DNA of 64,000 nt from a virus. The stretch lies in the IMG/VR virus record IMGVR_UViG_3300045988_067909. One strand, given 5' to 3'. Each line of letters begins with the position of its first letter. Position 1 is the first letter of the stretch. The position numbers and the translations under genes are program-made. This document shows, in pieces, positions 18,614 through 51,272 of the stretch. Under the pieces are notes generated by a model. That model was not told where the DNA came from. It saw only the letters and a program-made list of their open reading frames with translations, and made no database searches.

Positions 18614-20491
18614 ATGCTTCATATATACGACCAATATTTTGATGGGTCAGACTTAACGTTACTGAACTCATTCTATATAAAATCTAAGAAAGACAAAGCT
18701 GGATGGACATCTCCATATATAGTTATGGTAGCCAGAGACAACTCTACTGGTGAGAAAGTTAGATGTGAGATAGAGAATCCAGAATATATATACTTTGTGG
18801 CTAAAGACCCACAATCAATAACTCATCATTATGATTACATTGAACGAGATAAGGTTATACCAGTTAAGTGTAATAATGGTGAGCTTCTTAAATCTATTGC
18901 AGACAATACAGGTAATATAGAATACTTCTATAATAATATCAAGTCTAGAGACTTTGGTGCTAATACTAAGTTGCATACTTGTAATACAGTATTCTTATCT
19001 GATATGGAATTATCCGATCATTATAGATTTTGGTTTAGTCGGAGATTCCCTAATGAAATTAAAGTTCCACCAACTAAAGCATATTTCGATATTGAAGTTG
19101 ATATCTCAGAGATTGCTGGGGATTTCCCAGAACCAGGTGAAGCACCTGTATCTGCAGTAACTTATATCTTTGGTAATAATATCTATACGTATATTCTTAG
19201 AGATCATCGTAATGTACTTGTAGAAGAATTTGAATTAAAGTATAGAAAAGGTGGATTAGATGGTGAATTGTTTAGTCTTATTCGTTCTACAGTTGGTGGT
19301 AATGATAGGGTTAAACACTTTGGTTTAGAGAATATGAAATGGCATGCTTTATTTTTTGATGATGAAAAGGAGCTATTACATTCTTTATTCGATAAAGTTA
19401 ATGAAGATAAACCTGATTTCATGTTAGCATGGAACATGGCGTTCGACTTGCCATATATCATTGCTCGTATAGAAGACCAATTTGGTGAGAAAGCATCTGA
19501 CTATATTTGTCATCCAGACTTCTATACTAAGGAATGCTATTACTATGTAGATGAACGTGCAGGTCAAGCATTAGCTGAACGTGGTGACTATGCACAGATA
19601 TCTTCATATACAGTATACTTAGACCAAATGATTCAGTTTGCTTCTAGACGTAAAGGACAAGCTGCTTATCAATCTAATAAGTTGAATGATATCGGTCAAC
19701 AAGTTGCTGGTGTAGCTAAGTTAGACTATCATCATATTACTAGAGATATTGGTGAGTTACCATTTAAAGACTTTAAGACATATATATTCTATAACGTAGT
19801 CGACGTTATAGTACAGGTATGTATTGAAAAAGAAACTGGTGATATTGATTACGTATACAATACTACAGTTGATACAAATACTAGATATGCTAAGGCTCAT
19901 AGACAAACTGTATATCTTAATAATCAACGTGTTAAGATATATTACAATGATGGGTTCGTTCATGGTAATAATATCAATAAGTTTAAAGAGAAACCTAAAG
20001 AGAAGTTCCCTGGTGCATTCGTAGCAGATCCTAATCTTATTAGTGATTTTGCTAAGATTAAGATTAATGACCAACCAGTCTTGCTATTCGATAACTCAGT
20101 AGACTTTGACTTTAGTTCTCTATATCCTAGTATTATTCGTGAGTTCAATCTATCAGCACCAACTCAGATTGGTATGATTAAGTTTAATAATGAAGCACTA
20201 AGTGGTGCTAAGTTCATAGAAGATATAGCTACAGATGATAGTATCACATTCTGTCATAAGTGGTTTAATATGCCTAATATAGAAGAGATGGTACATATCA
20301 TCAAGATAAACGCACCAAGAATTCAAACTAAGAAACCATTCATGGCTTATACTGATGGTATACTTGGTGAAGTTGAACCTGATACATATACAACTTTAAA
20401 CATGTTTAGACATTCTGATACAGAAACACAATCTATGTTTAAACCTAAAGAATTATCCAAAGGAGAGATTGAAGATGGCGAAAGAGTATAA
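18614..20491 (+). CDS. family-B DNA polymerase, N-terminal part (3'-5' exonuclease domain + polymerase motif A)
   Basis: Exo I YFDIEVD, Exo II AWNMAFDLPYI, Exo III YNVVDV, Pol motif A DFDFSSLYPSII; ORF ends ~100 aa after motif A without motifs B/C. Confidence 0.85.
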   Translation: MLHIYDQYFDGSDLTLLNSFYIKSKKDKAGWTSPYIVMVARDNSTGEKVRCEIENPEYIYFVAKDPQSITHHYDYIERDKVIPVKCNNGELLKSIADNTGNIEYFYNNIKSRDFGANTKLHTCNTVFLSDMELSDHYRFWFSRRFPNEIKVPPTKAYFDIEVDISEIAGDFPEPGEAPVSAVTYIFGNNIYTYILRDHRNVLVEEFELKYRKGGLDGELFSLIRSTVGGNDRVKHFGLENMKWHALFFDDEKELLHSLFDKVNEDKPDFMLAWNMAFDLPYIIARIEDQFGEKASDYICHPDFYTKECYYYVDERAGQALAERGDYAQISSYTVYLDQMIQFASRRKGQAAYQSNKLNDIGQQVAGVAKLDYHHITRDIGELPFKDFKTYIFYNVVDVIVQVCIEKETGDIDYVYNTTVDTNTRYAKAHRQTVYLNNQRVKIYYNDGFVHGNNINKFKEKPKEKFPGAFVADPNLISDFAKIKINDQPVLLFDNSVDFDFSSLYPSIIREFNLSAPTQIGMIKFNNEALSGAKFIEDIATDDSITFCHKWFNMPNIEEMVHIIKINAPRIQTKKPFMAYTDGILGEVEPDTYTTLNMFRHSDTETQSMFKPKELSKGEIEDGERV

Positions 20492-21053
20492 CGTAGACTA
20501 TTACAATAACCTTATAAAGATGCTAAAATGTGATAGCATCTTTAATAGTGAGAATGATAATGTGCTACTTGGGTTTGGTCCTGGTATGTCTTATATGCAA
20601 ATTGTAGCACCACCATCAAATAAACCTATTGAGGGTAATGCTAATATTAATTGTCTTGATTTCAAGAACTGTATGAAACAAGAGAACTTTACATTCTTAC
20701 ATGATAACTATGAGTTTGGTCGTCAAGATATCTTAGATAAGTACTATACTATCTTGAGTTATATGGATACAAAGAACTTAGAAGTCCAATATAATAATGA
20801 AAGATTTGTAGACAAGTTCCAATATTTCTTAGATGCTAAAGCTAGTGATGGTGCTATTAAACTAGTAGTGGAAACTAAGAAAAGAGATTATGTATGTATG
20901 ATTTCTCGTGGTATCTTCCCTATCGTTAAAGGAGATAAGATGGAATTATACTTATATGATATTCCAACTACGTCTAAGTTTAAGCTATTAGTGTTTAGAC
21001 TATTCAAACGTAATGGATATATTATCGACCAAGTATTCAAATTATTATGCTAG
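20475..21053 (+). CDS. hypothetical protein
   Basis: ATG at 20475 preceded by AAAGGAGAG; overlaps the end of the polymerase N-part (coupled). Confidence 0.5.
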   Translation: MAKEYNVDYYNNLIKMLKCDSIFNSENDNVLLGFGPGMSYMQIVAPPSNKPIEGNANINCLDFKNCMKQENFTFLHDNYEFGRQDILDKYYTILSYMDTKNLEVQYNNERFVDKFQYFLDAKASDGAIKLVVETKKRDYVCMISRGIFPIVKGDKMELYLYDIPTTSKFKLLVFRLFKRNGYIIDQVFKLLC

Positions 21054-21140
21054 TAATGTATTTTAGGCTATGGCTCTCTGGGTCATAGCCTTTAAATGCT
21101 GAAACATCCTACTAATATGCTACTTTTTTCAAGGAGGTAA

Positions 21141-23429
21141 ATGATGGCTGATGATATTAAAAAAGATACAGCCGAGCAACGTGACTTATCTAAGTCTATT
21201 CTAAATATGCTCAATGGTTTGTATCGAAGAGCTTATATGACTCAACCAGATGCTAAAGATGAATTAGATGCATCGGATGCAAATATATCTGATACAGTAG
21301 AACGTATCATCTCTGACTCCAGTTATAAGACTGGGTTAAATAATATATCTACATTATATGCTAAACTATTACGTTCTCGTGGTGGTACTGCTAGTAGTGA
21401 TGATATGAACCAAATCTTTGGTAATGATATGGAGCTTAGTGGGTCTTTATATAATGCTTTCTTTAACAATAAGAATCTTAAAGACTATGATGCTGAAATC
21501 GATATGATTTGTAAGTATATGCCTAAGCTAGATGCAGCATTAAGTACGTTATTAGACAACGTATTATCTGCTGACCATTTTGCTAAAGACTATATTACAT
21601 TAGCAGAAACTAACTTCTCTATGGTTAGTAACCAAAAGACTATAGTTAATAACGTAGAGCTTATTAAGCATAAGTATAACTTAGCAGAGAAGTTCCAAGA
21701 TATTGCTTATAATGCGATGAAGTATGGTGAAGAGTTCGTATATATTATTCCATATGCTACAGCTATTACTAGACTATACAATAGTAATCAGGCTGCAGAT
21801 GTAGTTAAAGAATCTGTGGAATTTGACCAAAACTTTATTAATACTTATCAAAACCAAGATTCTCGTGATAAGATTAATTTTAATGACTTTAAAATAAACT
21901 TATCTTATTATAATGGATTACTTAACGAGTCTATTGTGGCCAATATCAAGGCAACTGAGAGACTCAAAAGTATCCAGGAGCAAAGTTTTAACGAAGCCTA
22001 TATACCTGTACTGGAGGTTATGAGTGACACGCAGAAAGCCTCTTTACAGAAAGATACAAGTATCTCTAATGCTCTTACACCTAAAGATGAATTAGACGTA
22101 AAAGACTTCTTTGAACCAACTCCAGATGGTATTACTGACCCTAATAAAGCTAAGAAGTATGGTAAAGAGATTAAAGCTGCTGGTGCTTTAATGAAAGTGC
22201 TTAAACGTGAAAATGTTGTACCTATCTATATTGATGATATCTGCTTAGGATATTACTATATCGAAGGAACTGCTAATAATTTCTTAGATAAGGATACTGC
22301 ATATCCTATGGCTGGTATTACTGATCCATTGAATAGTATGGCTATGTCTAAATCTCCAACAGCAGCGTTAAAGAACTCTGGTAATATTAATGATAATATG
22401 CTACGTGGTATTGCTGCTAAAATCTCTGGTATGATTGATGCTCAGTTCATTAAACTAAATAAAGATCTATCTAGAGAAATTTATGCTATTCTTAAATATA
22501 ATAGCATGACTCTCAAAGGAGAGAATGCATTAAACATTACATTCATCTCTCCTGATGATTTAGTTCATTGCTATTATAAATTTGATCCTGAATCTCATCG
22601 TGGTATCTCTCTATTAAATGATTCTATGATTCCAGCTAAGCTATATACTGGTATGTATATCTCTAATACGTTAGCTACTATGTCTCGTGGTTATGATAGA
22701 CGTGTATACTATGTAAAGAACTCTGGTGTAGATACTAATATTTCTCAATTACTTCTTCAAACTATGAAGCAAATCAAAATGACTAACTTTAATATTAGAC
22801 GTTTTGAGAATATGAATAACGTATTGAATATCATTGGTCAATTCAATGACTTCATTATTCCTACAAACGCTTCTGGTGAATCTCCTGTACAGTTCGAAAT
22901 CATGCAAGGACAAAACATTGACCCTCAAACTGAACTTATGCAGAAGCTTGAAGATATGGCTGTAGATGCTACTACAGTACCTGTAGAAATTGTAAATGCT
23001 AGAAACTCTCTAGACTATGCAGTACAAGCATCTATGACATCTAGTAAATTCTTAAAGACTGTAATCAGTGACCAAATCATTACTAATGCATTCTTTAGTC
23101 GTATTATGACACAGTTGTATAGAGCTGAGTACGATGATTCTAAGGCTATTATCAATGTATCCTTGCCACAACCATCTTACTTGAATACATCTAATACATC
23201 TACTATGATTAATAATATGAATGATATGGTTCAAGCTATAACTGATTCTTATTCTGACGATTTCACCGAAGAACAAAAACCATTGTTTATGGCTAATATT
23301 AAGAAAGAAATGCTACGTACGTATATCGACCAAGATATGGTAGATAGAGTGGCTAAACAAACTAAATTACAACTAGCAGCTAAAGCTACTAATGATGATG
23401 GTAGTGATGATAGCTCTGGTGGATACTAA
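21141..23429 (+). CDS. hypothetical protein (762 aa, possibly virion-associated)
   Basis: Large ORF with CAAGGAGGTAA RBS converging on the sheath/tube operon; no motif recognised. Confidence 0.6.
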   Translation: MMADDIKKDTAEQRDLSKSILNMLNGLYRRAYMTQPDAKDELDASDANISDTVERIISDSSYKTGLNNISTLYAKLLRSRGGTASSDDMNQIFGNDMELSGSLYNAFFNNKNLKDYDAEIDMICKYMPKLDAALSTLLDNVLSADHFAKDYITLAETNFSMVSNQKTIVNNVELIKHKYNLAEKFQDIAYNAMKYGEEFVYIIPYATAITRLYNSNQAADVVKESVEFDQNFINTYQNQDSRDKINFNDFKINLSYYNGLLNESIVANIKATERLKSIQEQSFNEAYIPVLEVMSDTQKASLQKDTSISNALTPKDELDVKDFFEPTPDGITDPNKAKKYGKEIKAAGALMKVLKRENVVPIYIDDICLGYYYIEGTANNFLDKDTAYPMAGITDPLNSMAMSKSPTAALKNSGNINDNMLRGIAAKISGMIDAQFIKLNKDLSREIYAILKYNSMTLKGENALNITFISPDDLVHCYYKFDPESHRGISLLNDSMIPAKLYTGMYISNTLATMSRGYDRRVYYVKNSGVDTNISQLLLQTMKQIKMTNFNIRRFENMNNVLNIIGQFNDFIIPTNASGESPVQFEIMQGQNIDPQTELMQKLEDMAVDATTVPVEIVNARNSLDYAVQASMTSSKFLKTVISDQIITNAFFSRIMTQLYRAEYDDSKAIINVSLPQPSYLNTSNTSTMINNMNDMVQAITDSYSDDFTEEQKPLFMANIKKEMLRTYIDQDMVDRVAKQTKLQLAAKATNDDGSDDSSGGY

Positions 23430-23441
23430 GAGACACAAAAA

Positions 23442-23478
23442 CCCCTATATAGGCATTGCCTATATAGGGATTCTTTTT
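23442..23478. terminator. bidirectional terminator (TATAGGCATTGCCTATA family)
   Basis: CCCCTATATAGGCATTGCCTATATAGGG + ATTCTTTTTAG; A-run on the other side serves the minus-strand tube gene. Confidence 0.7.
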
Positions 23479-23486
23479 AGTACATA

Positions 23487-24335
23487 TTAACCTTGGAATT
23501 CAGTAGTACCACCAGTATTACCAGTGCCATTGCTAACAAGAGTTTTATGATATGCATTGAAAGTACCACTGTAACGGAATTCGGATTCATTCCAGATAGT
23601 ACCTTTACGTACCCAGTCAAGTAATTGTTGAGCACGTTCATTAATGTACCAGTTAGAGATAGGTACACAGTTGTATTCAATGGACAATTCTTTGAATTCG
23701 TATTGACCTTTTTCAGAGTTATACAATTCAGAGAAGTCAGCATTAGTTGGTTGAGCTGCAACCAAGTAGTATGCTTTTTCGATATGACGCATTGTGTTAT
23801 TAGTTACGATATACATGAATGTGAAACATTCGTTTTCGAAACCAGCATCCAATACGCCTTTTTCGATAAGACCATTGTAGTGTTTAACACCAGTAGTTGG
23901 GTCTTTAATACCACGTAAGTACAATTCATGTACTTTAGTAAGTACAGAACCAGCTTTTTCAAAGAAACGCATGGAGATCTGAGAAGCAGATGGAGTTGTA
24001 ACTTTGTTGATTACGTTAATGGATTGGATACCATTAGTCAATTCTGCAGTTTCAGATTGCATGTTATCGAGACCACTTAAACCACGGAATTCATATTCCA
24101 AGATATGAACGTAAGTATCGATAAGTTTTTTGTAACGAGTATTACGGTCAGCCAATTCAGTTAAGAATCGAGGAATATCCAATACAATAAGTAAGGAGTA
24201 ACCAGATTCGAATTGGTTGAATTGTTGTAAGTTAGCCCAGTCTGTAGTACCACGGAAAAGGGCATAGCCTGTTAGGTCTTTGGTATCAGTTGTACCATCA
24301 AAGATGAAAGGAATTTCACCGTTTGTAAAAGCCAT
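23487..24335 (-). CDS. putative tail tube protein
   Basis: 282 aa gene immediately downstream of the sheath-like gene, strongly biased to highly-expressed codons (CGT, TTC, AAC, GGT, ACT); assignment by synteny and size only. Confidence 0.45.
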   Translation of the reverse strand: MAFTNGEIPFIFDGTTDTKDLTGYALFRGTTDWANLQQFNQFESGYSLLIVLDIPRFLTELADRNTRYKKLIDTYVHILEYEFRGLSGLDNMQSETAELTNGIQSINVINKVTTPSASQISMRFFEKAGSVLTKVHELYLRGIKDPTTGVKHYNGLIEKGVLDAGFENECFTFMYIVTNNTMRHIEKAYYLVAAQPTNADFSELYNSEKGQYEFKELSIEYNCVPISNWYINERAQQLLDWVRKGTIWNESEFRYSGTFNAYHKTLVSNGTGNTGGTTEFQG

Positions 24336-24353
24336 TGTTTAGTTCTCCTTTCC

Positions 24354-26513
24354 TTATACGTTATCAGCAACTGGGATAGCAATGATACGGAAGATTTCGT
24401 ATTGTACGAAGTCTTTGAATTTAACTTTGATAGAAGCGTATACAATTTTATTAGCTGCATAGATTGTATTTTGTTCCATAACCAATTCGATAGAAGCGAA
24501 TTTGGATTTGAATTTTTCAATAATACGGTTAACGTCAGCTTTGTATTTTTCAAAGTCTTGACCAGTAATGAATTTGTAACGAGATTTAGGACATTCTTTA
24601 CGAATTTCTTTAATTAATTCTTGTACAGTAAGTACGTTGTTGATGAAAGATAATTGAGTGTAACGGTCTTGAGATGTGTATTCGGAAACCATAGTGAATA
24701 CGTTGTTAATATTCATACCATAGTTTACACGCATATCTTCCATTTTTGTTTGTTGATCCAATGTAGGAGTAACTTTAGGAATGAAAGATACAGTTTTGTC
24801 AATAACGTTAGGAATGATCCAGCTATTAGCTTCACCAGCGCATACCAAGTTACGACCATTACCGAAGTGCATACAAATCAAACGAGCAATATCGTAACCG
24901 ATAGTTACAGTGATTTGTTTGTTTGTGTAAGGGTCATAGATATCATAGGATTGGCAATAGTCAGCTACGAAACGAGAACGATTAGCATCAATACCACCGA
25001 TCATATCTTTCTTAGATTTGATTGCCAATAATGTATTCATACCAATACCGTAATCACGGAAGAAGAATACGTCTTGACGGAATTTACACAATTCTACGAT
25101 AGCAGTTTTAACTGGTAATGCATAGTTAGCATCAACTACAACGTCAATTGGAGTGTTATCAGTATTGAAGATATCATCAGAGAATGTACCATCGAAAGCT
25201 TTCTTCATTTCTTCATCGTAAGGAATACGATAAGTTTTGTTTAACTTACGAGCATCTTCTGCATTCAATTTTTCTCTATAAGTTAGAGGGTAACGACCCC
25301 ATTTACCGTTGTCGCCACCTTTAAGGAAGTGACCTTCGGAAACGTTTAAGAATGTAGTTGTTTGGCCATCTTCGTTTTTGTCATTAATGTGAATCTTAGC
25401 GAATTCTTGACCACGATAGTCTTTACCATTCAAGATATCTGCAGTTTTCAAAATATTTTCATCAATATTTGTCATCTTAGCAACAGCTTGGAAGAACAAG
25501 TTAGTTTGGTCTTCGTATGCATGTACTTTGATTTGAGCAGCAGAACGTTTGGATACAGAATCAATGTACAAGTTGTAACCACGTTCTAATTCATCAGGGT
25601 TCAAGGAGAAGATCATGCTTTCTAAAGCAACATCGTTCTCATAAACGTCTAATTTGTAACGAGCGGATTCAGCTGTACGGGATAATGTAGCATCCAAGGA
25701 TACACGGATACGTTTGTTAGAAACACCACGACCATTGTCAGTTACTACGAATAACAAGTAATCGTTCATACGTGTACCAGCAGCAATAGCTTCACCAGTG
25801 AACTTTTCAGCTACTGTAAGAGCATTACCTTTTTTCTTCAATACATAGTCAGCTAATTTCTTAATGTCATTACCGATCTTTTCTTTCAATAAAGTATCAG
25901 AATCGATAGACTCTACAGAGTAGCTGATAGAGCAAGTATTGATGATAGCTTTTTGTACTCGAGGATCAGAATCAATAGTAGTAGGATCAGTGATAGGTGT
26001 ATCAAAACCATCAGCAGCACCTAATTCCATGATTTCTTCTTTGATGTATCGAGGACGATCAGCTTCTTCACGATACAATGCTACGTCAGAAGTTAACCAG
26101 TATTCTTCGTCTTTGATAGGTTTCAAAACACGAACACCGTTTTCTTCAACTTCTTCACGAAGAATATTGAAGTTTTCATCATGACGGTAGCGGAACAATT
26201 GTTGCTTATCTTCTTTAAGATGAGCAATTACTGCAAAGTTAGCTAATGTGGAATCAGGATGCACTACACGTTTTGCATACAAGATACCGCCATTGTTGAT
26301 AACGTTAGCAGCTTGAAGTAAAGGTTGGCCATGGCGTTGGAAAGAGATCTCGCCATATTGCTCGAAGAACTTATTACCTTGGATATGAATATAGTCTTCT
26401 GTACCCTTATCAGAAGTGAAAGCCGAAAAGACCACTGGTCTTGTCGTATTGTCAGATATCTGTAGGGAAGGAATATCGGACTGATCTTCTAGAATGATTG
26501 TAGTACCAATCAT
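24354..26513 (-). CDS. putative contractile tail sheath protein
   Basis: 719 aa, highly-expressed codon usage, followed by tube-sized gene; size/order as in T4 gp18-gp19 and phiKZ gp29-gp30; no motif-level proof. Confidence 0.5.
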   Translation of the reverse strand: MIGTTIILEDQSDIPSLQISDNTTRPVVFSAFTSDKGTEDYIHIQGNKFFEQYGEISFQRHGQPLLQAANVINNGGILYAKRVVHPDSTLANFAVIAHLKEDKQQLFRYRHDENFNILREEVEENGVRVLKPIKDEEYWLTSDVALYREEADRPRYIKEEIMELGAADGFDTPITDPTTIDSDPRVQKAIINTCSISYSVESIDSDTLLKEKIGNDIKKLADYVLKKKGNALTVAEKFTGEAIAAGTRMNDYLLFVVTDNGRGVSNKRIRVSLDATLSRTAESARYKLDVYENDVALESMIFSLNPDELERGYNLYIDSVSKRSAAQIKVHAYEDQTNLFFQAVAKMTNIDENILKTADILNGKDYRGQEFAKIHINDKNEDGQTTTFLNVSEGHFLKGGDNGKWGRYPLTYREKLNAEDARKLNKTYRIPYDEEMKKAFDGTFSDDIFNTDNTPIDVVVDANYALPVKTAIVELCKFRQDVFFFRDYGIGMNTLLAIKSKKDMIGGIDANRSRFVADYCQSYDIYDPYTNKQITVTIGYDIARLICMHFGNGRNLVCAGEANSWIIPNVIDKTVSFIPKVTPTLDQQTKMEDMRVNYGMNINNVFTMVSEYTSQDRYTQLSFINNVLTVQELIKEIRKECPKSRYKFITGQDFEKYKADVNRIIEKFKSKFASIELVMEQNTIYAANKIVYASIKVKFKDFVQYEIFRIIAIPVADNV

Positions 26514-26613
26514 ATGTTTTCCTCCTTTAAAATCAAAAAATTTTACAGGTTAGTCATATTATAATATTACTAAACTTTTACATCTATGTTGGATATAAGC
26601 CTTATAGGGTGTA

Positions 26614-27354: not shown

Positions 27355-27429
27355 TATATATACCTCCTTCTTAATGAGTTGTTCAAGTATAGCAGTTTTA
27401 CAGGGTTTTTGTAAACCTGTTTTTTTTTT

Positions 27430-27472: not shown

Positions 27473-27488
27473 TAAGGAGGAAACAATT

Positions 27489-27989: not shown

Positions 27990-27997
27990 AAAGAACT

Positions 27998-29027: not shown

Positions 29028-29064
29028 TATATCACTCGTTCCCTTACATTTTTAAAATATTATA

Positions 29065-36576: not shown

Positions 36577-36589
36577 GAGACAGAGAAAA

Positions 36590-36634
36590 CCCTATATAGG
36601 CAATGCCTATATAGGGAACTTTCTCTATTTTCTT
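36590..36634 (+). terminator. intrinsic terminator (TATAGGCAATGCCTATA family)
   Basis: CCCTATATAGGCAATGCCTATATAGGG + AACTTTCTCTATTTTCTT. Confidence 0.7.
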
Positions 36635-37070
36635 AAGGATAATGATGGCTAGTGTTTGATATAATAATATTATTCTTTTTAAGCGGAGTTTACCCATCTA
36701 TGAAGAACACTGTTAAAATCTACATAGATAGAATTTATACAAAATGTATGTACGTTTGTTAACTATTAACCATATTCTAATTGAACCAGAATTAGCTGTA
36801 AGTTATTTGTAGCACTTAGCCATCATTAATGATTTGTTTGTCTAGTTTTTAAAAATAAATATTAAGACTGTATAGATCATTGATCTATACAGCTATAGGT
36901 GTACAGGTGGTGGATTTAACGTATTCGTAGTAGTGTGTTCTATTTTGTGTCTTTATTATATAAGAGAGAGATTTTATATTTAAAGTTATTTATTTTGGAG
37001 CGAAGTTTTCAAGCAAGTAGTATAATGCAATATACCACAGTCGTGAGAGATTTTAACCACCTGTACACCG

Positions 37071-37100
37071 ATAGTTGTATATAATAGAGAATGCAGAATC
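37071..37100 (+). promoter_or_regulatory. orphan promoter-module-like element with no downstream plus-strand ORF
   Basis: AGTTGTATATAATAGAGAATGCAGAATC aligns with AGTTGTATACTATAATGGTAATATCATGG; lies inside a 600-bp ORF-free region. Confidence 0.3.
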
Positions 37101-37164
37101 TTAAGCCAACACAAACCTCTCTATTATAAAAGTGTTTATATATGCATAAAAATAAAAACAATAT

Positions 37165-37197
37165 AACCCTAACTAGTATTACTAGTTAGGGTATACT
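37165..37197 (-). terminator. intrinsic terminator for the minus-strand operon ending at 37268
   Basis: ACCCTAACTAGTATTACTAGTTAGGGT perfect palindrome followed (minus sense) by ATATTGTTTTTATTTTTAT. Confidence 0.6.
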
Positions 37198-37267
37198 GTA
37201 TGTGGATATTCTGTAAAGAAAGGATTTAAGAAGTGACATCTGCAAATACCACTTCATTATATTGTTC

Positions 37268-37651: not shown

Positions 37652-37654
37652 TGA

Positions 37655-43043: not shown

Positions 43044-43140
43044 ATGTACCTCCTTTAGGGCAGTTTACATGTATGTTTTCACAGGGCTAACTTTATAATA
43101 AGATGCTTAAAGCTACCCAAATAAGCCGAAAGGAGGCATT

Positions 43141-43542
43141 ATGGATACTAATAAATATAAGACATCATCTAAGATTAAAGAATATGCTTTATCGGTAGAT
43201 TCATTTAATAAACCAACAGAATATACTAATGCTAGAGCTATAGCTGTAGATATTATTAGACTATTCTTATTAGAACCTGGTACATTACAAAACAATCCAG
43301 ACTGTGGTATTGGTTTGTATAGTAGATATAAGTTTATAAATAGTGATAGACTACATGAACTAGAAGATACTGCCAAGAATCAAATACAAACATATCTTGC
43401 TCCTATGTCTTCTATTACAGTAGACTGCTCATTTATCAACGTAAATGTATTACTTATTAGAATGACTATTGACACATCTTCTGTCAATCTAGTTTTTAAT
43501 AAGGATAACCTTACTTTAAAAGATATTTCCAATTATAATTAA
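43141..43542 (+). CDS. hypothetical protein
   Basis: 133 aa ORF with AAAGGAGG RBS; divergent from the minus-strand block. Confidence 0.5.
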   Translation: MDTNKYKTSSKIKEYALSVDSFNKPTEYTNARAIAVDIIRLFLLEPGTLQNNPDCGIGLYSRYKFINSDRLHELEDTAKNQIQTYLAPMSSITVDCSFINVNVLLIRMTIDTSSVNLVFNKDNLTLKDISNYN

Positions 43543-43555
43543 GGAGGACTATTAG

Positions 43556-45310
43556 ATGGAAAAGAAAACTCTTTCCTTATCTGATTTGCAAGCTGAAGCT
43601 AATGTATCTGCAGAAGAAAATAATGCTGTAGAAACACCAGCTGAAGATACACCTGTAACGCCACAACCTGTAGAAGAGGAAGCACCTAAAAGTATTCGTG
43701 ATAATCCACTATACAACTTAGGCAATCCTACAGAAGATGCTATCAAAGAAGTAGCAATCGAAGATGTAGCTAAGTATGAAAATGAAAACTTTGCTGAAAA
43801 AGAATACGAAAAGAAAATGAATGACTTCGATGAACAAACTCGTCGAGCATTCCAACGTCGTTTCGGTCCAGCTATCGAAGAAGTTCAACGTATGGCTGAT
43901 GAATACGAAGAACGTAAAGAAATCGAAGGTGGAGATGTACGTGTAGTTTCTACTTATGATAAGAATGCTGAAGTAAATCCTGATGAAGCTCTTACTAAAG
44001 AAGAAATCGAAGAACGTAATGCTATTGCTTTAGCAGAAGCACGTAAGAAATCTCCAGCTAAGAAAGTTGAAACTAAAACAGTAGAAACTCCGACTACAGT
44101 TAAAGAAGAAACTGTAGATGATATTGAAGCTGAACTATTAGACCAACCTACAGTACCAGAACAAACTGTAGTTGATCCAGAAGATGATGATAAAGAATTA
44201 GATATCATTGATGATGATATTATTAATGACTTAGGTCTAGCAGATGAAATGCGTGAAATTGAAGAAAAAGAACGTGAAGAACGATTAAACAAACGTATGT
44301 CTACGTTCAAAGATCAATTACGTACTATGCTAGTTCCTAATAAAGCAAAAACTGATTTATCTAAATTCAAGATTCTTAAATCTACTATGCCAGCAAGTAA
44401 TATCTTAAGTAAACAAGCTGAAGAAACTCCATATTACACTTGGGTATTACCTTATACCGGTATTTCTGTATCTGTTTCTCCATTGTCCGCTATTGAAATC
44501 CAAAACTTAATTAATACAGAAGAAGGACGTAATAACGTTGAAGCTGCACGTGCTCAATTCGAATTGATTTGGAAACACTTGCATCCTAAATGTAATGCTG
44601 GGTCTTTTGAAAACTGGTGTAAGAAAATTCACTATGCTGATATTGACCACTTATACTTCGCTGTATATAAAGCATGCTTCCAAAATGCTAATATCATTGG
44701 CTTCCAATGTCAAAATACTAAATGTGATAATATCTTTGCAGAAAAACGTGAAATCATGGAAATGGTTAAATTCGGTTCTGATAAAGATAAAGAGCTATTC
44801 GATAAGCTTTACCAAAAAGACCCATCTGTAGATTGCACTTTAGAAGAAGACTTAATGGAAGTCTCTGATAAATATGCTATTGGTGTAGGCCCTATCACAT
44901 TATACAATATCCTATTTGAAATTAACTTCGTAGATAAAGCTATGACTGAAAAGTATGATACTTTCGTTGGTATGGCCGCTACTATTAAATCCTTATATCG
45001 TATTGATGAAGAAAAAGAAGCATTGATTCCTATCGCTTTCCGTACAGATAAGAATGATGTAGTTAAGACATACAAATATCGTATTGCTTCTCTATACAAA
45101 ATCTTCAATACTTTAAGTGATATTGACTTAAACGATATCAGTGATCGTATTGGTGAGTATGCTGATAGATATGCTGATTCCATTGATATTTCTTACCAAA
45201 TGCCAGCGGCTACATGTCCTGAATGTGGTGATGAAATCCAAGCTGCTGAGGCTCCAGCTCAACAATTGGTTTTTATACGACATCGGCTAGTACAAGTTTT
45301 GAACTCCTAG
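43556..45310 (+). CDS. hypothetical protein: acidic N-terminal half, Cys-containing C-terminal half
   Basis: 584 aa; Glu/Asp-rich first ~250 aa; C-terminal CQNTKC and CPEC pairs. Confidence 0.6.
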   Translation: MEKKTLSLSDLQAEANVSAEENNAVETPAEDTPVTPQPVEEEAPKSIRDNPLYNLGNPTEDAIKEVAIEDVAKYENENFAEKEYEKKMNDFDEQTRRAFQRRFGPAIEEVQRMADEYEERKEIEGGDVRVVSTYDKNAEVNPDEALTKEEIEERNAIALAEARKKSPAKKVETKTVETPTTVKEETVDDIEAELLDQPTVPEQTVVDPEDDDKELDIIDDDIINDLGLADEMREIEEKEREERLNKRMSTFKDQLRTMLVPNKAKTDLSKFKILKSTMPASNILSKQAEETPYYTWVLPYTGISVSVSPLSAIEIQNLINTEEGRNNVEAARAQFELIWKHLHPKCNAGSFENWCKKIHYADIDHLYFAVYKACFQNANIIGFQCQNTKCDNIFAEKREIMEMVKFGSDKDKELFDKLYQKDPSVDCTLEEDLMEVSDKYAIGVGPITLYNILFEINFVDKAMTEKYDTFVGMAATIKSLYRIDEEKEALIPIAFRTDKNDVVKTYKYRIASLYKIFNTLSDIDLNDISDRIGEYADRYADSIDISYQMPAATCPECGDEIQAAEAPAQQLVFIRHRLVQVLNS

Positions 45311-45357
45311 ACCAAGTCAATAGGCTATCTTATGAGTATCGTGGGCGAATAACTATC

Positions 45358-45630
45358 ATGGAGATTATGAATGCTCCTGTATGGTATATGGTAGCCCTAC
45401 GATACTTTAAATACCAAGAACGTGTAACTGCTAAAAAGAAACAAAAAGAAGATGATATTAAAGCCAAAGCTAAAAAGCAAAGCTTTAATAAGAATAAATA
45501 CACTGGTAGACAGTTACTAGAGATGGATATAGCCAGAGAAAATGGTCACCATATCCCTGGTTTCGAAGGATTAACTAGAGACGAAGCTGATGATCTTAAT
45601 GAACAAATGATGGAAGAAGGTCTCATCTAA
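45358..45630 (+). CDS. small basic/acidic protein translationally coupled to the radical SAM enzyme
   Basis: 90 aa; stop TAA overlaps ATG of 45630 gene (TAATG); weak RBS. Confidence 0.45.
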   Translation: MEIMNAPVWYMVALRYFKYQERVTAKKKQKEDDIKAKAKKQSFNKNKYTGRQLLEMDIARENGHHIPGFEGLTRDEADDLNEQMMEEGLI

Positions 45631-46694
45631 TGTATACTATACCTAAGAAAGCAATTAATACTTTAGATGATTTTACTCTATCAAACTTAGAATTGATTCT
45701 AAATAAAGACTGTAATATGGCTTGTAGTTATTGCTTCTTATATGGTGATACAAATAGTGGTGAAAGATTCTCCAGATGGGATGACTTATTAGAGATGCTT
45801 AAGAATATAAATATATCTGAAACATTATCTGTTGGGCTAGACTCTGGAGAATTATTTACCCCTGATAGATTACCATTAGTTATGAAAGCTATGAGAGTCT
45901 TAAAAAAAATTACTAGGTATAAAAACACTACAATAGATTGGTGTACTTATAGTAATGGTACTAACTTCGAGCCTATAAGAGATTTCTTAATAGCAACTCA
46001 GGGTGAGAATAGAACCATTAGTGTATCATATGATGGCGAAGATTCATATAGAAGACTTAAGAACAATAAACCATCTAATACATTAGACACTCTTAAGAGA
46101 TTAAGTGAATCTGGATTTGCTAATGATATCATTATCAGATATGCTATTACAGAGAAAGTGTATAATATGAAAGAGACTTTCGATGCTCTATACAAATTAG
46201 GATATAAGAATATTGAATACTATTTTATACGTAATTATAATTCTTATACCATTCCACTAGTTGTGGATACTTTTAGAAAGAGTCTTACTGATACACTTAA
46301 CTATGTAAAAGATACTGATATTGATTTGTATAATCTACATGATTACTATAGCAATCAAAATCCAACCGTTATTTGTAACTATGGTAATATGCTCACTATA
46401 ACACCTAACGGTAAAATGAGTACTTGCTGTGCAGTCTATGAGGGTATCTATGCTGATAATGTAGAAGCTGATCTATTAGAGTATAATCGTATACCTGAAC
46501 TATATAACTCTTTCGAAGCTAACTATATCTATGATAGGTCTAAAAGTGAATGTGCAGTATGTACAAATCAAATGTGTAAAGAATGCTGTTCATATAAAGC
46601 TATTGGAAGAGATAAATATTATAATAAGAGACACCATCAACAGTGTCATATTAGGCATGCTGAACTAGCTGTCTATGATTCTATTTTTAATTGA
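45630..46694 (+). CDS. radical SAM enzyme with C-terminal SPASM/twitch-like Cys-rich domain
   Basis: CNMACSYC (CxxxCxxC) at aa 28-35; C-terminal CNYGNMLTITPNGKMSTCC .. CAVCTNQMCKECC auxiliary-cluster pattern. Confidence 0.8.
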   Translation: MYTIPKKAINTLDDFTLSNLELILNKDCNMACSYCFLYGDTNSGERFSRWDDLLEMLKNINISETLSVGLDSGELFTPDRLPLVMKAMRVLKKITRYKNTTIDWCTYSNGTNFEPIRDFLIATQGENRTISVSYDGEDSYRRLKNNKPSNTLDTLKRLSESGFANDIIIRYAITEKVYNMKETFDALYKLGYKNIEYYFIRNYNSYTIPLVVDTFRKSLTDTLNYVKDTDIDLYNLHDYYSNQNPTVICNYGNMLTITPNGKMSTCCAVYEGIYADNVEADLLEYNRIPELYNSFEANYIYDRSKSECAVCTNQMCKECCSYKAIGRDKYYNKRHHQQCHIRHAELAVYDSIFN

Positions 46695-46711
46695 TATTTT
46701 CGGAGACATAA

Positions 46712-47035
46712 ATGGACTTACTAGAGTTTTCATCTAAATTTATTATGGGAGAAACAGATGCATTATCTACATTTTGTCGTCTATTTACCGAGAATAATAT
46801 CTTATACTTTATGCTAGCACCATATGGATGTCTTGGTAATAAAATTGTCAAGTCTGACTTATGTGAAGATAGTGTAGCAGTTACTATATTTGGTAATAAA
46901 TCAAATATTAATGCGTTTAAAAGCATTGAAACAGATTACAATGGGAAGGTAATAAATCGCCATAACACGAATATTGCAATTTCCTGTGTATGTCATAAGC
47001 CAACTGAAATACAAATGGTTTTCAGTAGAGTTTAG
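46712..47035 (+). CDS. small Cys-containing hypothetical protein
   Basis: 107 aa, 7 Cys (several in pairs); immediately downstream of rSAM gene; followed by hairpin CCCATAGTCCACATATAGGACTATGGG. Confidence 0.45.
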   Translation: MDLLEFSSKFIMGETDALSTFCRLFTENNILYFMLAPYGCLGNKIVKSDLCEDSVAVTIFGNKSNINAFKSIETDYNGKVINRHNTNIAISCVCHKPTEIQMVFSRV

Positions 47036-47110
47036 ATGTGTAAATTCCCATAGTCCACATATAGGACTATGGGATTTCTACATATTAATAACTACGGAGG
47101 TTATAAAAAT

Positions 47111-48790
47111 ATGGCAGATAAACTTAGAGGAGATCATTTAGAGGTCTCTTTATTAGATATGGATGACTTCGTAAAGAAGAATAATCTACAACCTATAACG
47201 AATCCTATATTTTTTGATGTGAATGGTAATCCAACTGATGATGGATTACTATCTAATATCATCTTTGGTATTACTAAGCAAACACGTGCTGGTACTTTTG
47301 CTTATATTGATTTACATGGTAGATTCTTAGCACCATTGGTATACAAGATCTGGGGTAAGATTGATCGTAAACTAAAAGAAATTGTTAAAGGTACTAAGTT
47401 CTTTAAAATAGATTCGGATGGTCAATTTGTTGAAGATGAGAATGGTGAAACTGGTTTAGACTTCTTATATAAGAATATAGACAAGGTTAAGTTTAGAGAG
47501 ACTGGTTCTACTAAACGTAGTCGTTTTATTAAGTTCTTAGAACGTAACCGTAAGAACTTCTTCATTACTAAACTATTAATCATTCCACCATACTATCGTG
47601 ACGTTAAAAGTGATGGTGGTAAAGTCTCAGTTGGTGATATTAATAAGCTATACCAAAACGTATTAGTATCAGCTAAGTCTTTAGAAGAATCTAAATACTA
47701 TGGTATTAATATCGGTGATGCTAATAAGGGACGTATACAAGACTTACTATTAGAAATCTATAACTGGTTTGGCTCTGGTACAGAGTCTAATCCTAATGGT
47801 GGTATTCCTGGTAAGTTTGGTGTATTACGTCGTACTAATATTAGTAAGACTACAGACTATGCTACACGTTTAGTTATGTCTTCTCCAAATCTTAAAGTTG
47901 AAAATCTTGAAGATATCGAAGCTAACTTAGAATACTCAGTATTACCAATGACTTCAGCTGCAGCTAACTTCTTCCCATTTGTATTATTCCATATGAGAAG
48001 ATTCTTTGAAGAGCAATTTGCTGGACGTACAGTATACGAATGTATTGGTTCCAAGGGTGAAGTCTTATATCCTAGAATAGATGATTGGCAAACGTATTTC
48101 AATGATCTAGTTCTTAAGAAAGAGTTAGACCGTTTCATTCATGGTTATTCTGATAGATTTAGACCAATAGAAGCACCTATTAGTTCTAAAGAGATGGAAC
48201 GTATTGGTTATAAGGGTAAAACTTTATACATGAAATTTAAAGCACGTTTTAAACGAGTTGAAGATATTGCTGAAGATAAAGATTCTGGTGTAGCAAAAGA
48301 GCTTCAACGTAAACTAACTTGGTGTGATGTAATCTTTATGGCTGCTACAGAAGCTATAAAAGATAAAATGATTCTTATATCACGTTTCCCTATAGATACA
48401 TTCTATAACCAGTTCTCTACTAAATGTAAATTATCATCTACTATTGAAACTGAAAGTATAGAATTTGATGGTAAGTTCTATAAGAACTATCCTAAGATTC
48501 GTGATGAATACATTGGCACTAATACTGCAAATAAGTTTATTGATACAATGAATATCTGTAATGCTTATTTGGAATCTATTGGTGGTGACTATGATGGTGA
48601 TATGGTAACCATCAAAGGCATATTCACAGATGAAGCTAACGCTGAACTTAAAAAGCAACTAGAGTCTAATGTCCATTTTATTGACTTAGGTTGTAAAGCA
48701 GTAATAGCTAATACTAACGAATGTATCCAAGCATTGTTCTCTTTAACTATGACATTAGATGGGGATGTACTTACTGACCCTAAATTTTAA
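47111..48790 (+). CDS. multisubunit RNA polymerase beta-prime-like subunit, N-terminal portion (split beta-prime)
   Basis: GGIPGKFGVLRRTNISKTTDYATRLVMSSP parallels beta-prime [27 protein letters not shown]; catalytic-site-like IGGDYDGDMVTIKG (compare NADFDGDQM); ATG at 47111 after GGAGG. Confidence 0.8.
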   Translation: MADKLRGDHLEVSLLDMDDFVKKNNLQPITNPIFFDVNGNPTDDGLLSNIIFGITKQTRAGTFAYIDLHGRFLAPLVYKIWGKIDRKLKEIVKGTKFFKIDSDGQFVEDENGETGLDFLYKNIDKVKFRETGSTKRSRFIKFLERNRKNFFITKLLIIPPYYRDVKSDGGKVSVGDINKLYQNVLVSAKSLEESKYYGINIGDANKGRIQDLLLEIYNWFGSGTESNPNGGIPGKFGVLRRTNISKTTDYATRLVMSSPNLKVENLEDIEANLEYSVLPMTSAAANFFPFVLFHMRRFFEEQFAGRTVYECIGSKGEVLYPRIDDWQTYFNDLVLKKELDRFIHGYSDRFRPIEAPISSKEMERIGYKGKTLYMKFKARFKRVEDIAEDKDSGVAKELQRKLTWCDVIFMAATEAIKDKMILISRFPIDTFYNQFSTKCKLSSTIETESIEFDGKFYKNYPKIRDEYIGTNTANKFIDTMNICNAYLESIGGDYDGDMVTIKGIFTDEANAELKKQLESNVHFIDLGCKAVIANTNECIQALFSLTMTLDGDVLTDPKF

Positions 48791-48800
48791 CAAAAGAAAT

Positions 48801-48836
48801 CCCAGTATAGTCAATGACTATACTGGGTATATTTTA
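48801..48836. terminator. bidirectional terminator
   Basis: CCCAGTATAGTCAATGACTATACTGGG + TATATTTTACATT. Confidence 0.65.
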
Positions 48837-49193
48837 CATTCTTTTACGTTTATTGCCATTGAGTAATCCATTAATTTGTGTAATAGTAGTCTTCTGTACA
48901 TTAATAGCTTTGAAGTATTCTTTATTGATTTCTTCAAACTCTTTACTTCTAGGGTCTAGTATATTCATAAAATTACGGAATAACCCAACAAACGTCACTT
49001 TTGCAGAATATCGTTGGTTTTTAAACCAAGCAGATGTTTTAGCTGATTGATATACATTCATAAGATATTCAAGTTTTTCAAACTTATTATCTTGGCAAGC
49101 TTTCCATCCCTCATTTATAGTCTGAGCATATTCAAACTTGCCACAGTCTGCAATGAAATATATCAAATCGTCTATTCTAGATAAATTTGCCAT
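48834..49193 (-). CDS. hypothetical protein
   Basis: 119 aa ORF downstream of polymerase C-part on minus strand. Confidence 0.45.
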   Translation of the reverse strand: MANLSRIDDLIYFIADCGKFEYAQTINEGWKACQDNKFEKLEYLMNVYQSAKTSAWFKNQRYSAKVTFVGLFRNFMNILDPRSKEFEEINKEYFKAINVQKTTITQINGLLNGNKRKRM

Positions 49194-49208
49194 GCAACAC
49201 AGTTCCCT

Positions 49209-51272
49209 TTAAATAGTTATAATATTAGTATAGTTTACATTTTCCTTTTCGAATCTAGTTATACCAATAGACTCTAATGGGAAGTTCTTGATATTGGTAT
49301 TGATGATTTCAAAATAATCAGCATAGTCTAATACCCAGCTTGGTAAGTGTTCATCTGCTGGTACTGCAACGGCAAGTATCTCTCCCTTATACGTTGCTCT
49401 ATTATTATCAAAGAACTTAATAAGTCTTTCATATACCGCAGGATTAGACTGCTGTAATTCACCAATGTTTTTCTCTCTAATATTAACTTTAAGTATCTCT
49501 AAATAGTTTCTGCTATCTAAATCTATTGGTTCAGTACCCTCATCACGAATAGCTTCATTATACGCAATAGCTGCTTTAATACCTTGTATTCTCATAGGGT
49601 CTGCATATGAAGATATAGATTTTACAGATACTGGTTTGTAATAGTCTTTCTCTCCAGACTTGATACTATCATGGATATTTTTTTCAATCTTAGCTAGTAA
49701 ACCAATAACTTCTAATTGGTCTACTTCAGGTTTAAGTAATACTTTCTCTCTAAGTATTCCTTGAAGCTCATCTTTAATACTGTCTTTAAATACAGACTTA
49801 TTGATAGGAAGACCTTTAATATCCATTTGCTTATTCTTAGGTACTATATTACCCTCTTGAAGCTCTTGGATTGTAGCGTAGTTCTTCTTAGCTGGTGTAA
49901 GTAATGCACGTTTAAATAAGAACTCATTCTTCATGTCAATAAGACATACCTTGTATGGTGTCAAAGTATTATACTGCTCAGCAATAAGATGGAAATGAGA
50001 TTTAAGAATCTTACTTACGATATAGCATAAGATATTTACACTGGAAATGCGTACTGCATCATAACCCTCGGTAATCTTAGTCTCTTCTTCCACTTCTTCG
50101 ATTTCATCAGTATAGAAGTTGTATAACTCTTTTCTCTCTTTAGTTACAACTTCCTTGAGGTCATTGACTAATGTACAATCATGGTCTACTAAGATATTAT
50201 CTACAAGATGAATCCATTTATCTGTACTAATTACAGAAGAATCTGTATCTGTAAGTAATACGATATCCCTAGTCATAGTAGAGCATCTTTCAAACTTATC
50301 AGATACAATGTATCTCATATAACACCATTCCATAAATATAGTTGTAAGTTTATTTAGACTTTCAACTATATTCTCTGGTGGTTCATTAGGGTTCATAAAT
50401 GGTTCATTAATACCACTAAAGATATTCTTAATTAAGTCTTGTACGTGAGATGAATCAACTACAAGTCTATATAAGTTATTCTTATAGTATATCTTATTAA
50501 GTACTTCTTGAGATTGATACATCAAGATATTCCAAATGATATCACTATACTTACTGAAATGCTCTTCTGTATCATTAACCCATACGCCACAAGACTCTAT
50601 AACTTTCTTATAGACTTCTTCTATAGGTATATCTCTAGACAACTCTAGTTCTCTACTATAGATATGAGATGGTTCTTTAATAATCCTATTCAAGAATACT
50701 ACAGCTTCATCTATATTCTGGAACTTAAGATTATTAGTGAAGATTTGTTCAAATAAACTAATAGCATGAGTAATAAGCATACGACCTGTAGCTGTAGTCC
50801 CTACTGCAACGTATAAGTTATATGATGCTGATGCTGGTGAACCAATATCACCATATGTAGCATTACCATCACGTTTAGCTAATAGCTGTAATAGATTATA
50901 CTTATTAAATTCATCTGAACCCTTAGGGAATTCAAACATCTTCTTCTTATAAGCTTTACGTTTAGTTACATAAGACTCTAATAGTCTGTAGAATGGTGTA
51001 AACCCCTCTTCGTGTTGTTTAAACAAACACCCATTAGGAACTAAGATAGGTTTATCTGTCTCTATCTTATTAACTAAATCAGTTAACTGTAAGTCAACTA
51101 CAATATCTTTATAGTTATTATCTATACGTACATCTGGATTATTAAACTTCCGTTCAATAGCATCTTCAATGAAGAACTGTATTTCATCTATAGTCAATGT
51201 CGGGAACTGCATACGTAATAACGTAGTCATTTCCTCTTTGTATTTCTTAATCACATTCAAATCTAGTTTCAT
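49209..51272 (-). CDS. family-B DNA polymerase, C-terminal part (motifs B and C, thumb)
   Basis: Motif B LLAKRDGNATYGDIG (KxxxNAxYG), motif C VLLTDTDSSV (DTDS), KKNY (KKRY-like); begins where the 18614 gene stops. Confidence 0.85.
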   Translation of the reverse strand: MKLDLNVIKKYKEEMTTLLRMQFPTLTIDEIQFFIEDAIERKFNNPDVRIDNNYKDIVVDLQLTDLVNKIETDKPILVPNGCLFKQHEEGFTPFYRLLESYVTKRKAYKKKMFEFPKGSDEFNKYNLLQLLAKRDGNATYGDIGSPASASYNLYVAVGTTATGRMLITHAISLFEQIFTNNLKFQNIDEAVVFLNRIIKEPSHIYSRELELSRDIPIEEVYKKVIESCGVWVNDTEEHFSKYSDIIWNILMYQSQEVLNKIYYKNNLYRLVVDSSHVQDLIKNIFSGINEPFMNPNEPPENIVESLNKLTTIFMEWCYMRYIVSDKFERCSTMTRDIVLLTDTDSSVISTDKWIHLVDNILVDHDCTLVNDLKEVVTKERKELYNFYTDEIEEVEEETKITEGYDAVRISSVNILCYIVSKILKSHFHLIAEQYNTLTPYKVCLIDMKNEFLFKRALLTPAKKNYATIQELQEGNIVPKNKQMDIKGLPINKSVFKDSIKDELQGILREKVLLKPEVDQLEVIGLLAKIEKNIHDSIKSGEKDYYKPVSVKSISSYADPMRIQGIKAAIAYNEAIRDEGTEPIDLDSRNYLEILKVNIREKNIGELQQSNPAVYERLIKFFDNNRATYKGEILAVAVPADEHLPSWVLDYADYFEIINTNIKNFPLESIGITRFEKENVNYTNIITI

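Follow-up and report, generated by a model that had tools for sequence, protein, structure and literature searches.

PhiKZ-type family-B DNA polymerases (PolBs), composed of two separately encoded chains, have been known since 2012 and were structurally resolved in 2026. The phiKZ-type 'split subunit DNA polymerase' was, as cited in a later paper, first recognised by Cornelissen et al. in 2012 (PMC5105663). An October 2026 preprint by Basu et al. reported that phiKZ gp82 (DNAP-N, 638 amino acids (aa)) and gp50 (DNAP-C, 731 aa) are purified together in a stable 1:1 pair, which has both polymerase and exonuclease activity and whose cryo-electron microscopy (cryo-EM) structure at 2.1 Å is that of an RB69-like PolB (PMC13648687). 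In this structure the subunit boundary falls inside a large helical 'palm insertion' domain, comprising DNAP-N residues 589-638 and DNAP-C residues 1-98 and 221-419; the motif A Asp562 is on DNAP-N and the motif C Asp426 on DNAP-C, the chains are extensively interdigitated, and the substitution D562A on DNAP-N abolishes polymerisation (PMC13648687). A further subunit, Rhc (RNase H plus a clamp-like part), has been described only for the chimalliviruses. Here we analyse a pair of genes for a polymerase of this type on a 64,000-nucleotide stretch of phage DNA (IMG/VR virus record IMGVR_UViG_3300045988_067909), hereafter the window, which takes up roughly positions 158969-222968 of a metagenomic contig of 260,470 bp (ENA ERZ783382 NODE_1); the scans reported below cover this window. 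The pair specifies both subunits of a single replicative family-B DNA polymerase belonging to the phiKZ/AR9 'split' type and, to judge from the sequences, is an additional case, from a large uncultured clade, of the split polymerase already described, leaving the current understanding of the phenomenon unchanged.

Non-covalent two-polypeptide family-B polymerases are also represented by the split gp43 (43A/43B) of some T4-related phages and by the two-subunit PolB of Methanothermobacter, which are independent fissions at other positions in classical PolB lineages; the halves of the T4-like split gp43 remain adjacent around an inserted mobile element. The PolB of Nanoarchaeum equitans is a split-intein polymerase in two pieces, and cyanobacterial DnaE is a known case of trans protein splicing. 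The 'fractured' PolB of Pseudomonas phage MIJ3, although likewise in two pieces, is a different kind of split from that in the window, since it carries intein blocks A/B/F/G, is ligated into one chain and consists of adjacent pieces with an HNH gene between them (PMC6892783).

One polymerase in two genes

DNAP-N is encoded on the plus strand by an ATG-initiated open reading frame (ORF) of 625 aa, and DNAP-C on the minus strand by an ATG-initiated ORF of 687 aa, both taken from the ORF listing (Table 1); we refer to their products as the N-half and the C-half. The two genes are separated by 28.7 kb, in which lie some 25 ordinary phage genes, including those for tail sheath, virion proteins and an RNA polymerase (RNAP) subunit. 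The initial annotation had described these ORFs as lying on opposite strands about 29 kb apart, and its coordinates proved exact; the Exo I, II and III motifs and motif A (DFDFSSLYPS), which it had assigned to the first ORF, and the KRDGNATYG and LTDTDS motifs, which it had assigned to the minus-strand ORF, were all located, the latter two at aa 133-141 and 340-345. All three exonuclease motifs of family B, with the patterns DxE, Nx2-3FD and Yx3D, are thus found in the N-half, and motifs A (DxxSLYPS), B (KxxxNSxYG) and C (DTDS) with KKxY are found only when both ORFs are taken jointly. The catalytic aspartate of motif A is D499, as indicated by alignment to RB69, KP15 and AR9.

The N-half matches Pfam PF03104 (DNA_pol_B_exo1) at E 1.1e-10 and, over almost the whole profile (positions 36-562 of 576), PHROG 3011 ('DNA polymerase') at E 2.9e-57, while the C-half matches PF20286 (divDNApol, Divergent Family B DNA polymerase) at E 1.9e-34 with 119.4 bits (cut-off 25.7), PF00136 at E 2.3e-10 and PHROG 2927 at E 3.9e-64; matches of this strength lie well outside what chance would give. 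On three independent yardsticks the halves together cover one family-B polymerase with zero overlap: the N-half occupies positions 19-431 and the C-half positions 445-572 of PHROG 262, whose profile represents full-length PolB in 856 positions; on PF00136 the corresponding ranges are 62-86 and 115-211; and on the residues of RB69 gp43, to which the initial annotation had proposed an alignment as a check, the N-half covers 81-435 and the C-half clade profile 556-595, again in a complementary manner. Of the features that mark the phiKZ/AR9-type split PolB, the window has the PF20286 assignment of the C subunit and the homologous break, with the motif A aspartate on one chain and the motif C aspartates on the other.

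In clade alignments comprising 48 N-halves and 54 C-halves, with 36-55% identity to the window, the catalytic residues are all invariant, among them D159, E161, N274, D278, Y393 and D397 of the exonuclease, and purifying selection is evident on both halves from these comparisons. Such conservation bears on the reading, named in the initial annotation as a possible refutation, that the ORFs are decayed pseudogene fragments and that the genome's working polymerase is an intact one encoded elsewhere. This reading draws on the fact that inspection was limited to 64 kb of the 260-kb contig, but both ORFs are full-length when compared with hundreds of homologues, every catalytic residue is retained without exception, and the gene ends and neighbours of the halves are conserved at ~50% identity. 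Moreover, the complete genomes of AR9, PBS1, phiR1-37 and the Staphylococcus S6-like phages show a single place of match for each half, although the N-half query is sensitive enough to find T4-type PolB in hundreds of other genomes. A second, intact polB is therefore without support in the 64 kb inspected and in these relatives, and we regard the pseudogene reading as exceedingly unlikely.

The other refutation that had been foreseen, a misjoined assembly, fares no better. The source is a metagenome assembly, and either a chimeric contig or a frameshift within a single gene could in principle mimic a split. Yet an identical N-half, followed by the same downstream genes, is present on 13 contigs (12 beyond the source contig) from several runs, and these independent assemblies give identical gene ends; clusters of the two halves at ~99% identity hold 762 and 654 member sequences; the distance between the halves is filled with the ordinary phage genes mentioned above; and the same split occurs in cultured phages with finished genomes. 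The probability of an assembly or annotation artefact is, in our judgement, vanishingly small.

The break and its descent

The initial annotation had located the break between motifs A and B, which is correct, and within the fingers, which is not: it falls in the palm/palm insertion, ~50 residues past motif A, and precedes the 'PNG' strand, which itself precedes the finger helices. In a multiple alignment the N-halves of the window, AR9, phiR1-37 and phiKZ all end just past a common helix, ~50 aa after motif A, which reads HKWFNMPNIEEMVHIIK in the window, NKWHNLPTTSDLIQKLK in AR9 and QKIMGAPKMDTLLEKF in phiKZ, and the four corresponding C-halves align from the first residue to the last. The counterpart of this helix in phiKZ, residues 589-638, belongs to the palm insertion domain (PMC13648687).

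For both halves the closest cultured relatives are the Bacillus jumbo phages of the AR9/PBS1 group (Takahashivirus), at ~88-99% coverage, the N-half being 34% identical to AR9 gp131 (3e-78) and the C-half 28% identical to AR9 gp151 (5e-73). The next protein matches are to BpSp, the Staphylococcus S6/MarsHill-like phages, Listeria LPJP1 and Yersinia phiR1-37, followed for the C-half by the phiKZ-like phages (phiKZ gp50, 22% identity, 2e-11), and in every one of these finished relative genomes the polymerase consists of two genes. Their arrangement varies: AR9 has gp131 and gp151 on one strand with 15 kb between them; in phiR1-37 the N-half g170 lies 1.7 kb from, and divergent to, a C-half which is split again into g167 and g164; and in phiKZ, gp82 and gp50 lie 35 kb apart on the same strand. 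The AR9 record states of gp131 that it 'contains DnaQ-like 3'-5' exonuclease and partial catalytic domain' and gives gp151 a type-B catalytic domain; the phiR1-37 record, too, annotates the split polymerase. Given the common break and the full-length homology, the split is therefore one ancient event of the whole group and not a peculiarity of this contig; as far as sequences can tell, it goes back to the group's common ancestor and is no recent disruption. The initial annotation had likewise mentioned split polymerases in some phiKZ-related jumbo phages, and phiKZ gp82/gp50, AR9 and phiR1-37 bear this out.

The surroundings of both genes also have their counterparts in AR9. The order SbcC...DNAP-N, then the small ORF and a virion protein gene, turned towards the genes for tail tube and sheath, parallels AR9 gp138...gp131...gp127 facing gp126-124, and the block of virion protein, C-terminal beta' subunit of the non-virion RNAP and superfamily 2 helicase, divergent from DNAP-C, parallels AR9 gp152-155, divergent from gp151. 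The flanks of both halves recur in metagenomic relatives at ~50% identity. Relative to AR9, the arrangement fits a mere rearrangement of the two gene blocks, and the high inversion rate in phiKZ-related genomes is in keeping with this (PMC5105663). The AR9/PBS1, phiR1-37 and Staphylococcus S6/MarsHill-like phages share with the window both the break position and the local synteny around each half. AR9 differs in having, after DNAP-N, a DEDD exoribonuclease-like gene (gp130, annotated as 'RNase H' and in fact a DEDD Rv2179c-like exoribonuclease), whereas the clade of the window has an unrelated small ORF at this place.

With phiKZ the window shares the allotment of N-terminal domain (NTD), exonuclease and motif A to one chain and of the remaining palm, fingers and thumb to the other, the homologous break after the common terminal helix, the assignment of the C subunit to PF20286, the helical insertion between motifs B and C, and a distance of tens of kb between the genes. 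The differences are that the C-halves are 22% identical and the N-halves barely detectable in pairwise comparison, that the phiKZ 'little finger' insertion is missing from the N-half of the window, which has an additional tail at its C-terminus, that the genes are on opposite strands in the window and on the same strand in phiKZ, and that neither an Rhc homologue nor chimallin was seen in the 64-kb window.

The extra tail invites the question of trans protein splicing, in which split-intein halves would ligate both products into one chain. Such a process would suit genes that are distant and on opposite strands, as known split-intein genes are, and a DNAP-N with a ~60-aa C-terminal tail beyond its AR9 and phiKZ counterparts; jumbo phages with split-intein PolB genes do exist (PMC6892783). 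The initial annotation had dismissed an intron or intein on the ground that the halves are distant and inverted. The conclusion stands on the direct tests, which were negative, whereas the argument does not, because split inteins act in trans. Neither ORF contains a Hint/intein Pfam family at E<=0.1; neither a Cys/Ser-led block A nor a TxxH block B is seen in the tail, which is poorly conserved; HN[C/S/T] junctions are absent from the first 90 aa of DNAP-C; and the N-terminus of DNAP-C can be aligned, starting at its first residues, to AR9, phiKZ and 53 clade members. Since, in addition, the homologous phiKZ proteins were purified and resolved as two separate chains (PMC13648687), we consider ligation of the products extremely improbable. 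Interruption by a cis- or trans-acting group I or group II intron was rejected as well, in that sensitive Rfam scans of 20300-21200 and 51100-51500 were empty at E<=0.1, while the same kind of scan does detect the group I intron in the thymidylate synthase gene of the window (see below).

The clade to which the pair belongs is extensive. Among the best 120 homologues listed for each half, the N-halves have 625-680 aa apart from one of 817 aa (AR9: 554), and the C-halves have 659-733 aa, all 120 of the latter carrying PF20286; many of these listed homologues are on contigs of 200-290 kb, and the two with source names come from metagenome-assembled genomes (MAGs), one of Pseudobutyrivibrio and one of 'Caudoviricetes sp.'. 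A C-half clade profile searched against 1.84 billion cluster representatives gave 3514 matches at E<=1e-3, of which the best 150 are nearly all split-size proteins or fragments, with two long exceptions. The two-subunit phiKZ-type replicase accordingly extends beyond the cultured chimalliviruses and the AR9-like Bacillus phages to a very large uncultured jumbo-phage clade. Among 50,697 phage records there is no near-identity DNA match for either ORF, and this phage is therefore not in GenBank.

A probable two-chain replicase

AlphaFold2 models built on the clade alignments have a predicted local distance difference test score (pLDDT) of 81 for the N-half and 86.7 for the C-half, and between them display the PolB fold with its NTD and exonuclease as well as its palm, fingers and thumb. 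In Foldseek searches of PDB copies without the phiKZ cryo-EM structure, the top match of both models was RB69 gp43 (E 4.9e-17 over ~475 columns for the N-half, E 4.5e-6 for the C-half), followed by the polymerases of poxvirus and African swine fever virus and by pol alpha/delta, all top matches being family B. In a model of the N-half by itself, residues 1-460, which make up the NTD and the exonuclease, are predicted with confidence, and the palm piece 465-523 with motif A has a pLDDT <50, which would fit a fragment that folds only against the palm of its partner. The C-half model begins with helices at 6-22 and 28-42, continues with the PNG strand at 79-84 and two finger helices at 93-144, on which motif B is located, and has a helical block at 187-332 between motif B and the motif C hairpin; in this single-chain model the helices 6-42 and 187-332 align with the insertion segments of phiKZ gp50.

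By analogy with phiKZ, the two products very probably assemble non-covalently into one replicase with an active site drawn from both chains. Each gene has its own ribosome-binding site, and DNAP-N and DNAP-C would be translated separately. From DNAP-N would come the NTD, the exonuclease for proofreading and the palm strand on which the motif A aspartate lies; from DNAP-C, the remaining palm with the motif C aspartates and KKxY, the fingers with motif B, and the thumb. The chains would then join in a non-covalent 1:1 heterodimer, and the catalytic site would form solely in the complex, because each chain gives one metal-binding aspartate. From homology with phiKZ, the interface would be the helical 'palm insertion', assembled from the last DNAP-N helix, from ~75 residues at the start of DNAP-C and from the helical block that separates motif B of DNAP-C from motif C.

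A looser relationship can also be envisaged, in which the genes specify two independent enzymes, a stand-alone proofreading exonuclease in loose association with a self-sufficient, exonuclease-less polymerase. It is the view taken in a comparative survey of jumbo phages by Iyer et al. 2021, according to whom the group 1 polymerase has no fused exonuclease, this activity being encoded elsewhere (PMC7824862). However, motif A, with its invariant D497 and D499, resides on the N-half; no motif A is recognised in the C-half alignment, in which the N-terminal 75 residues are helical insertion sequence; and in phiKZ, as described above, the chains interdigitate and loss of the motif A aspartate of DNAP-N kills polymerisation (PMC13648687). 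Two self-standing enzymes are for these reasons very unlikely.

What the initial annotation called a genuinely split, two-polypeptide polymerase is thus supported by full-length homology, a common break and the phiKZ complex. Some observations nevertheless weigh against the heterodimeric replicase as we propose it. For this phage, both the heterodimer and its activity are extrapolated from the phiKZ experiments. The pairwise similarity of the N-half to phiKZ gp82 is weak (blastp E 1e-3), so that the multiple alignment and the intermediate position of AR9 and phiR1-37 carry the link between them. Searches of the 64-kb window with tblastn and phmmer gave no homologue of the phiKZ Rhc (gp155), and ~196 kb of the 260-kb source contig, where another polymerase might be encoded, lie beyond the window. 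Finally, the upstream regions of the two halves have no promoter motif in common. In the same vein, scans for sigma-70 promoters and terminators around both genes gave results no better than shuffled sequence, and AR9 early-promoter-like sequences are not evident upstream of either half.

For annotation it follows in practice that half of a polymerase active site is encoded by what is called the 'exonuclease' gene in these phages, and we suggest that both genes be named as DNAP-N and DNAP-C of one enzyme. Small new leads on the assembly of the replicase are offered by rare fused relatives and by a small ORF coupled to DNAP-N.

Table 1. Positions of the polymerase genes, their motifs and associated elements (positions in the window, unless preceded by the label of a metagenomic contig)
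Feature	Position	Strand	Description and basis
DNAP-N, N-terminal polymerase subunit	18614..20491	+	NTD, 3'-5' exonuclease, first palm segment with motif A, terminal helix, ~60-aa tail
Exo I FDIEVD, aa 158-163 (D159, E161)	19085..19102	+	D159 and E161 invariant in 48 clade members
Exo II WNMAFDLPY, aa 273-281 (N274, F277, D278)	19430..19456	+	Motif position and clade alignment
Exo III YNVVD, aa 393-397 (Y393, D397)	19790..19804	+	Motif position and clade alignment
Polymerase motif A DFDFSSLYPS, aa 497-506	20102..20131	+	D497, D499 and L503-S506 invariant
Terminal helix HKWFNMPNIEEMVHIIK	20255..20305	+	MAFFT alignment; common to the C-terminal ends of AR9 gp131, phiR1-37 g170 and phiKZ gp82
C-terminal tail of DNAP-N, aa 565-625	20306..20488	+	Clade-specific; poorly conserved; low-confidence prediction
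Small ORF, 192 aa	20475..21053	+	ATG within the last DNAP-N codons, 17-nt overlap, own Shine-Dalgarno sequence
DNAP-C, C-terminal polymerase subunit	49209..51272	-	Motif B, motif C, KKxY, thumb
Motif B KRDGNATYG, aa 133-141	50850..50876	-	Ala for Ser at 138; K133, N137, Y140 and G141 invariant in 54 clade members
Motif C LTDTDS, aa 340-345 (D342, D344)	50238..50255	-	D342-T343-D344-S345 invariant
KKNY, aa 462-465 (KKxY primer-binding motif)	49878..49889	-	Y465 invariant
P0312, fused single-chain polymerase, 1224 aa	L016:18-3692		Continuous ORF, metagenomic contig
P0352, fused single-chain polymerase, 1276 aa	L017:5001-8831		Continuous ORF, metagenomic contig of 68 kb
Small-ORF counterparts	L011:7878-8477, L013:5920-6441, L014:5911-6522, L015:5944-6636
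Intergenic cassette, copies	6575-6660, 7265-7346, 10785-10866, 11349-11433, 13061-13150; variant at 16313		De novo k-mer search of intergenic regions
Intergenic cassette, short copies	7857, 7884, 27458, 58295

Fused relatives, the small ORF and the wider window

The two long proteins in the clade, P0312 and P0352, contain Exo I-III and motif A followed by a complete C-half, and 5-15 residues link the last N-half helix to the first C-half helix. Because these relatives join the chain ends through so short a link, the end of DNAP-N and the start of DNAP-C are compatible with being neighbours, as they are in the phiKZ structure. In a rough neighbour-joining tree of 120 C-halves (corrected p-distances, no bootstrap) the phiKZ, phiR1-37 and AR9 lineages, all split, are basal, and the fused forms stand beside different split proteins, P0293 (47% identity) and P0313/P0298 (~40%). 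Two independent secondary re-fusions would be the most parsimonious reading of these sequence relationships; if so, the fission is reversible, and P0312 and P0352 would be natural single-chain versions for biochemistry. Upstream of P0352 on contig L017, the genes resemble those upstream of the N-half on contig L014, namely a YunG-like gene and then a minus-strand ORF of ~320-420 aa.

The small ORF that overlaps the end of DNAP-N has a counterpart of 173-230 aa at the same position in four relatives (Table 1); the N-halves of these are 43-52% identical and the ORF itself 19-29%, so that it appears to be a fast-evolving gene whose position is kept. It has no Pfam, PHROG or NCBIfam match and no homologue from a large-database search, nor is it similar to AR9 gp130, to phiKZ Rhc or to the ORF that follows the fused polymerase in L017. 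Against the PDB its sole match was a designed TIM barrel at E 0.005, which was taken as noise. That its product is a polymerase accessory factor is speculation from position alone: it could be a processivity or assembly factor in the role of the clamp-like phiKZ Rhc, and the tail of DNAP-N, which is absent from AR9, phiR1-37 and phiKZ and is apparently disordered, could be its docking site. A joint reading, in which the small ORF would encode a clade-specific third polymerase subunit and, separately, P0312 and P0352 would be independent re-fusions, we hold to be unlikely. In one relative (48% identity) a protein of 867 aa with the major-vault-protein shoulder domain PF11978 is encoded ~1 kb upstream of DNAP-N (L013:231-2834).

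Many small plus-strand genes of the window are preceded, at a distance of 31-90 nt, by an intergenic cassette of ~85 nt, CGTAAAACT...TTTTTAGTTGTATACTATAATGGTAATATCATGGTTATATATTTATT...AGGAGG, a conserved sequence that probably serves as a class-specific phage promoter or 5' leader. Neither polymerase half has a sense-oriented copy upstream, and co-regulation of the halves is not supported. A perfect 12-bp stem at 48801-48827, CCCAGTATAGTC...GACTATACTGGG, scores as a bidirectional terminator-like hairpin and sits between two convergent genes, that for an RNAP beta' piece and a 119-aa ORF downstream of DNAP-C.

This RNAP gene (47069-48790, plus strand) encodes an N-terminal beta' piece that contains the catalytic motif DYDGD (PHROG 2986, E 2.8e-76) and resembles that of the AR9 virion RNAP subunit gp144; two intron/homing-endonuclease insertions break up the AR9 gene, whereas the copy in the window is uninterrupted. 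A C-terminal beta' piece, similar to the AR9 non-virion RNAP subunit gp153 (PHROG 3015), is encoded at 52017-54143 on the plus strand, and a radical SAM family protein (PF04055, E 8e-7) at 45630-46694 on the same strand, just upstream of the beta' gene at 47069-48790.

AR9 and PBS1 are reported to have uracil DNA. In the window, a thymidylate synthase gene (11893-12980, minus strand) is interrupted by a group I intron at ~12205-12491, which a whole-window Rfam scan at the gathering threshold missed and which was found by a local sensitive scan (RF00028, 52.4 bits against a gathering score of 50, at 12255-12501). The two thyA ORFs cover PF00303 positions 1-168 and 169-266, and joining exon 1 (12492-12980) to exon 2 (11893-12204) yields a protein of 266 aa that scores 211 bits against the ThyA model TIGR03284 (cut-off 108); a U precedes the 5' splice site and a G is the last base of the intron. 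Since a genuine ThyA is encoded, the DNA of this phage is suggested to contain thymine, unlike that of AR9/PBS1. A stretch of 691 nt at 36577-37267 has no Rfam match at E<=0.1 and no tRNA; it contains no ORF of >=60 aa on either strand and is unusually long for so densely coded a window.

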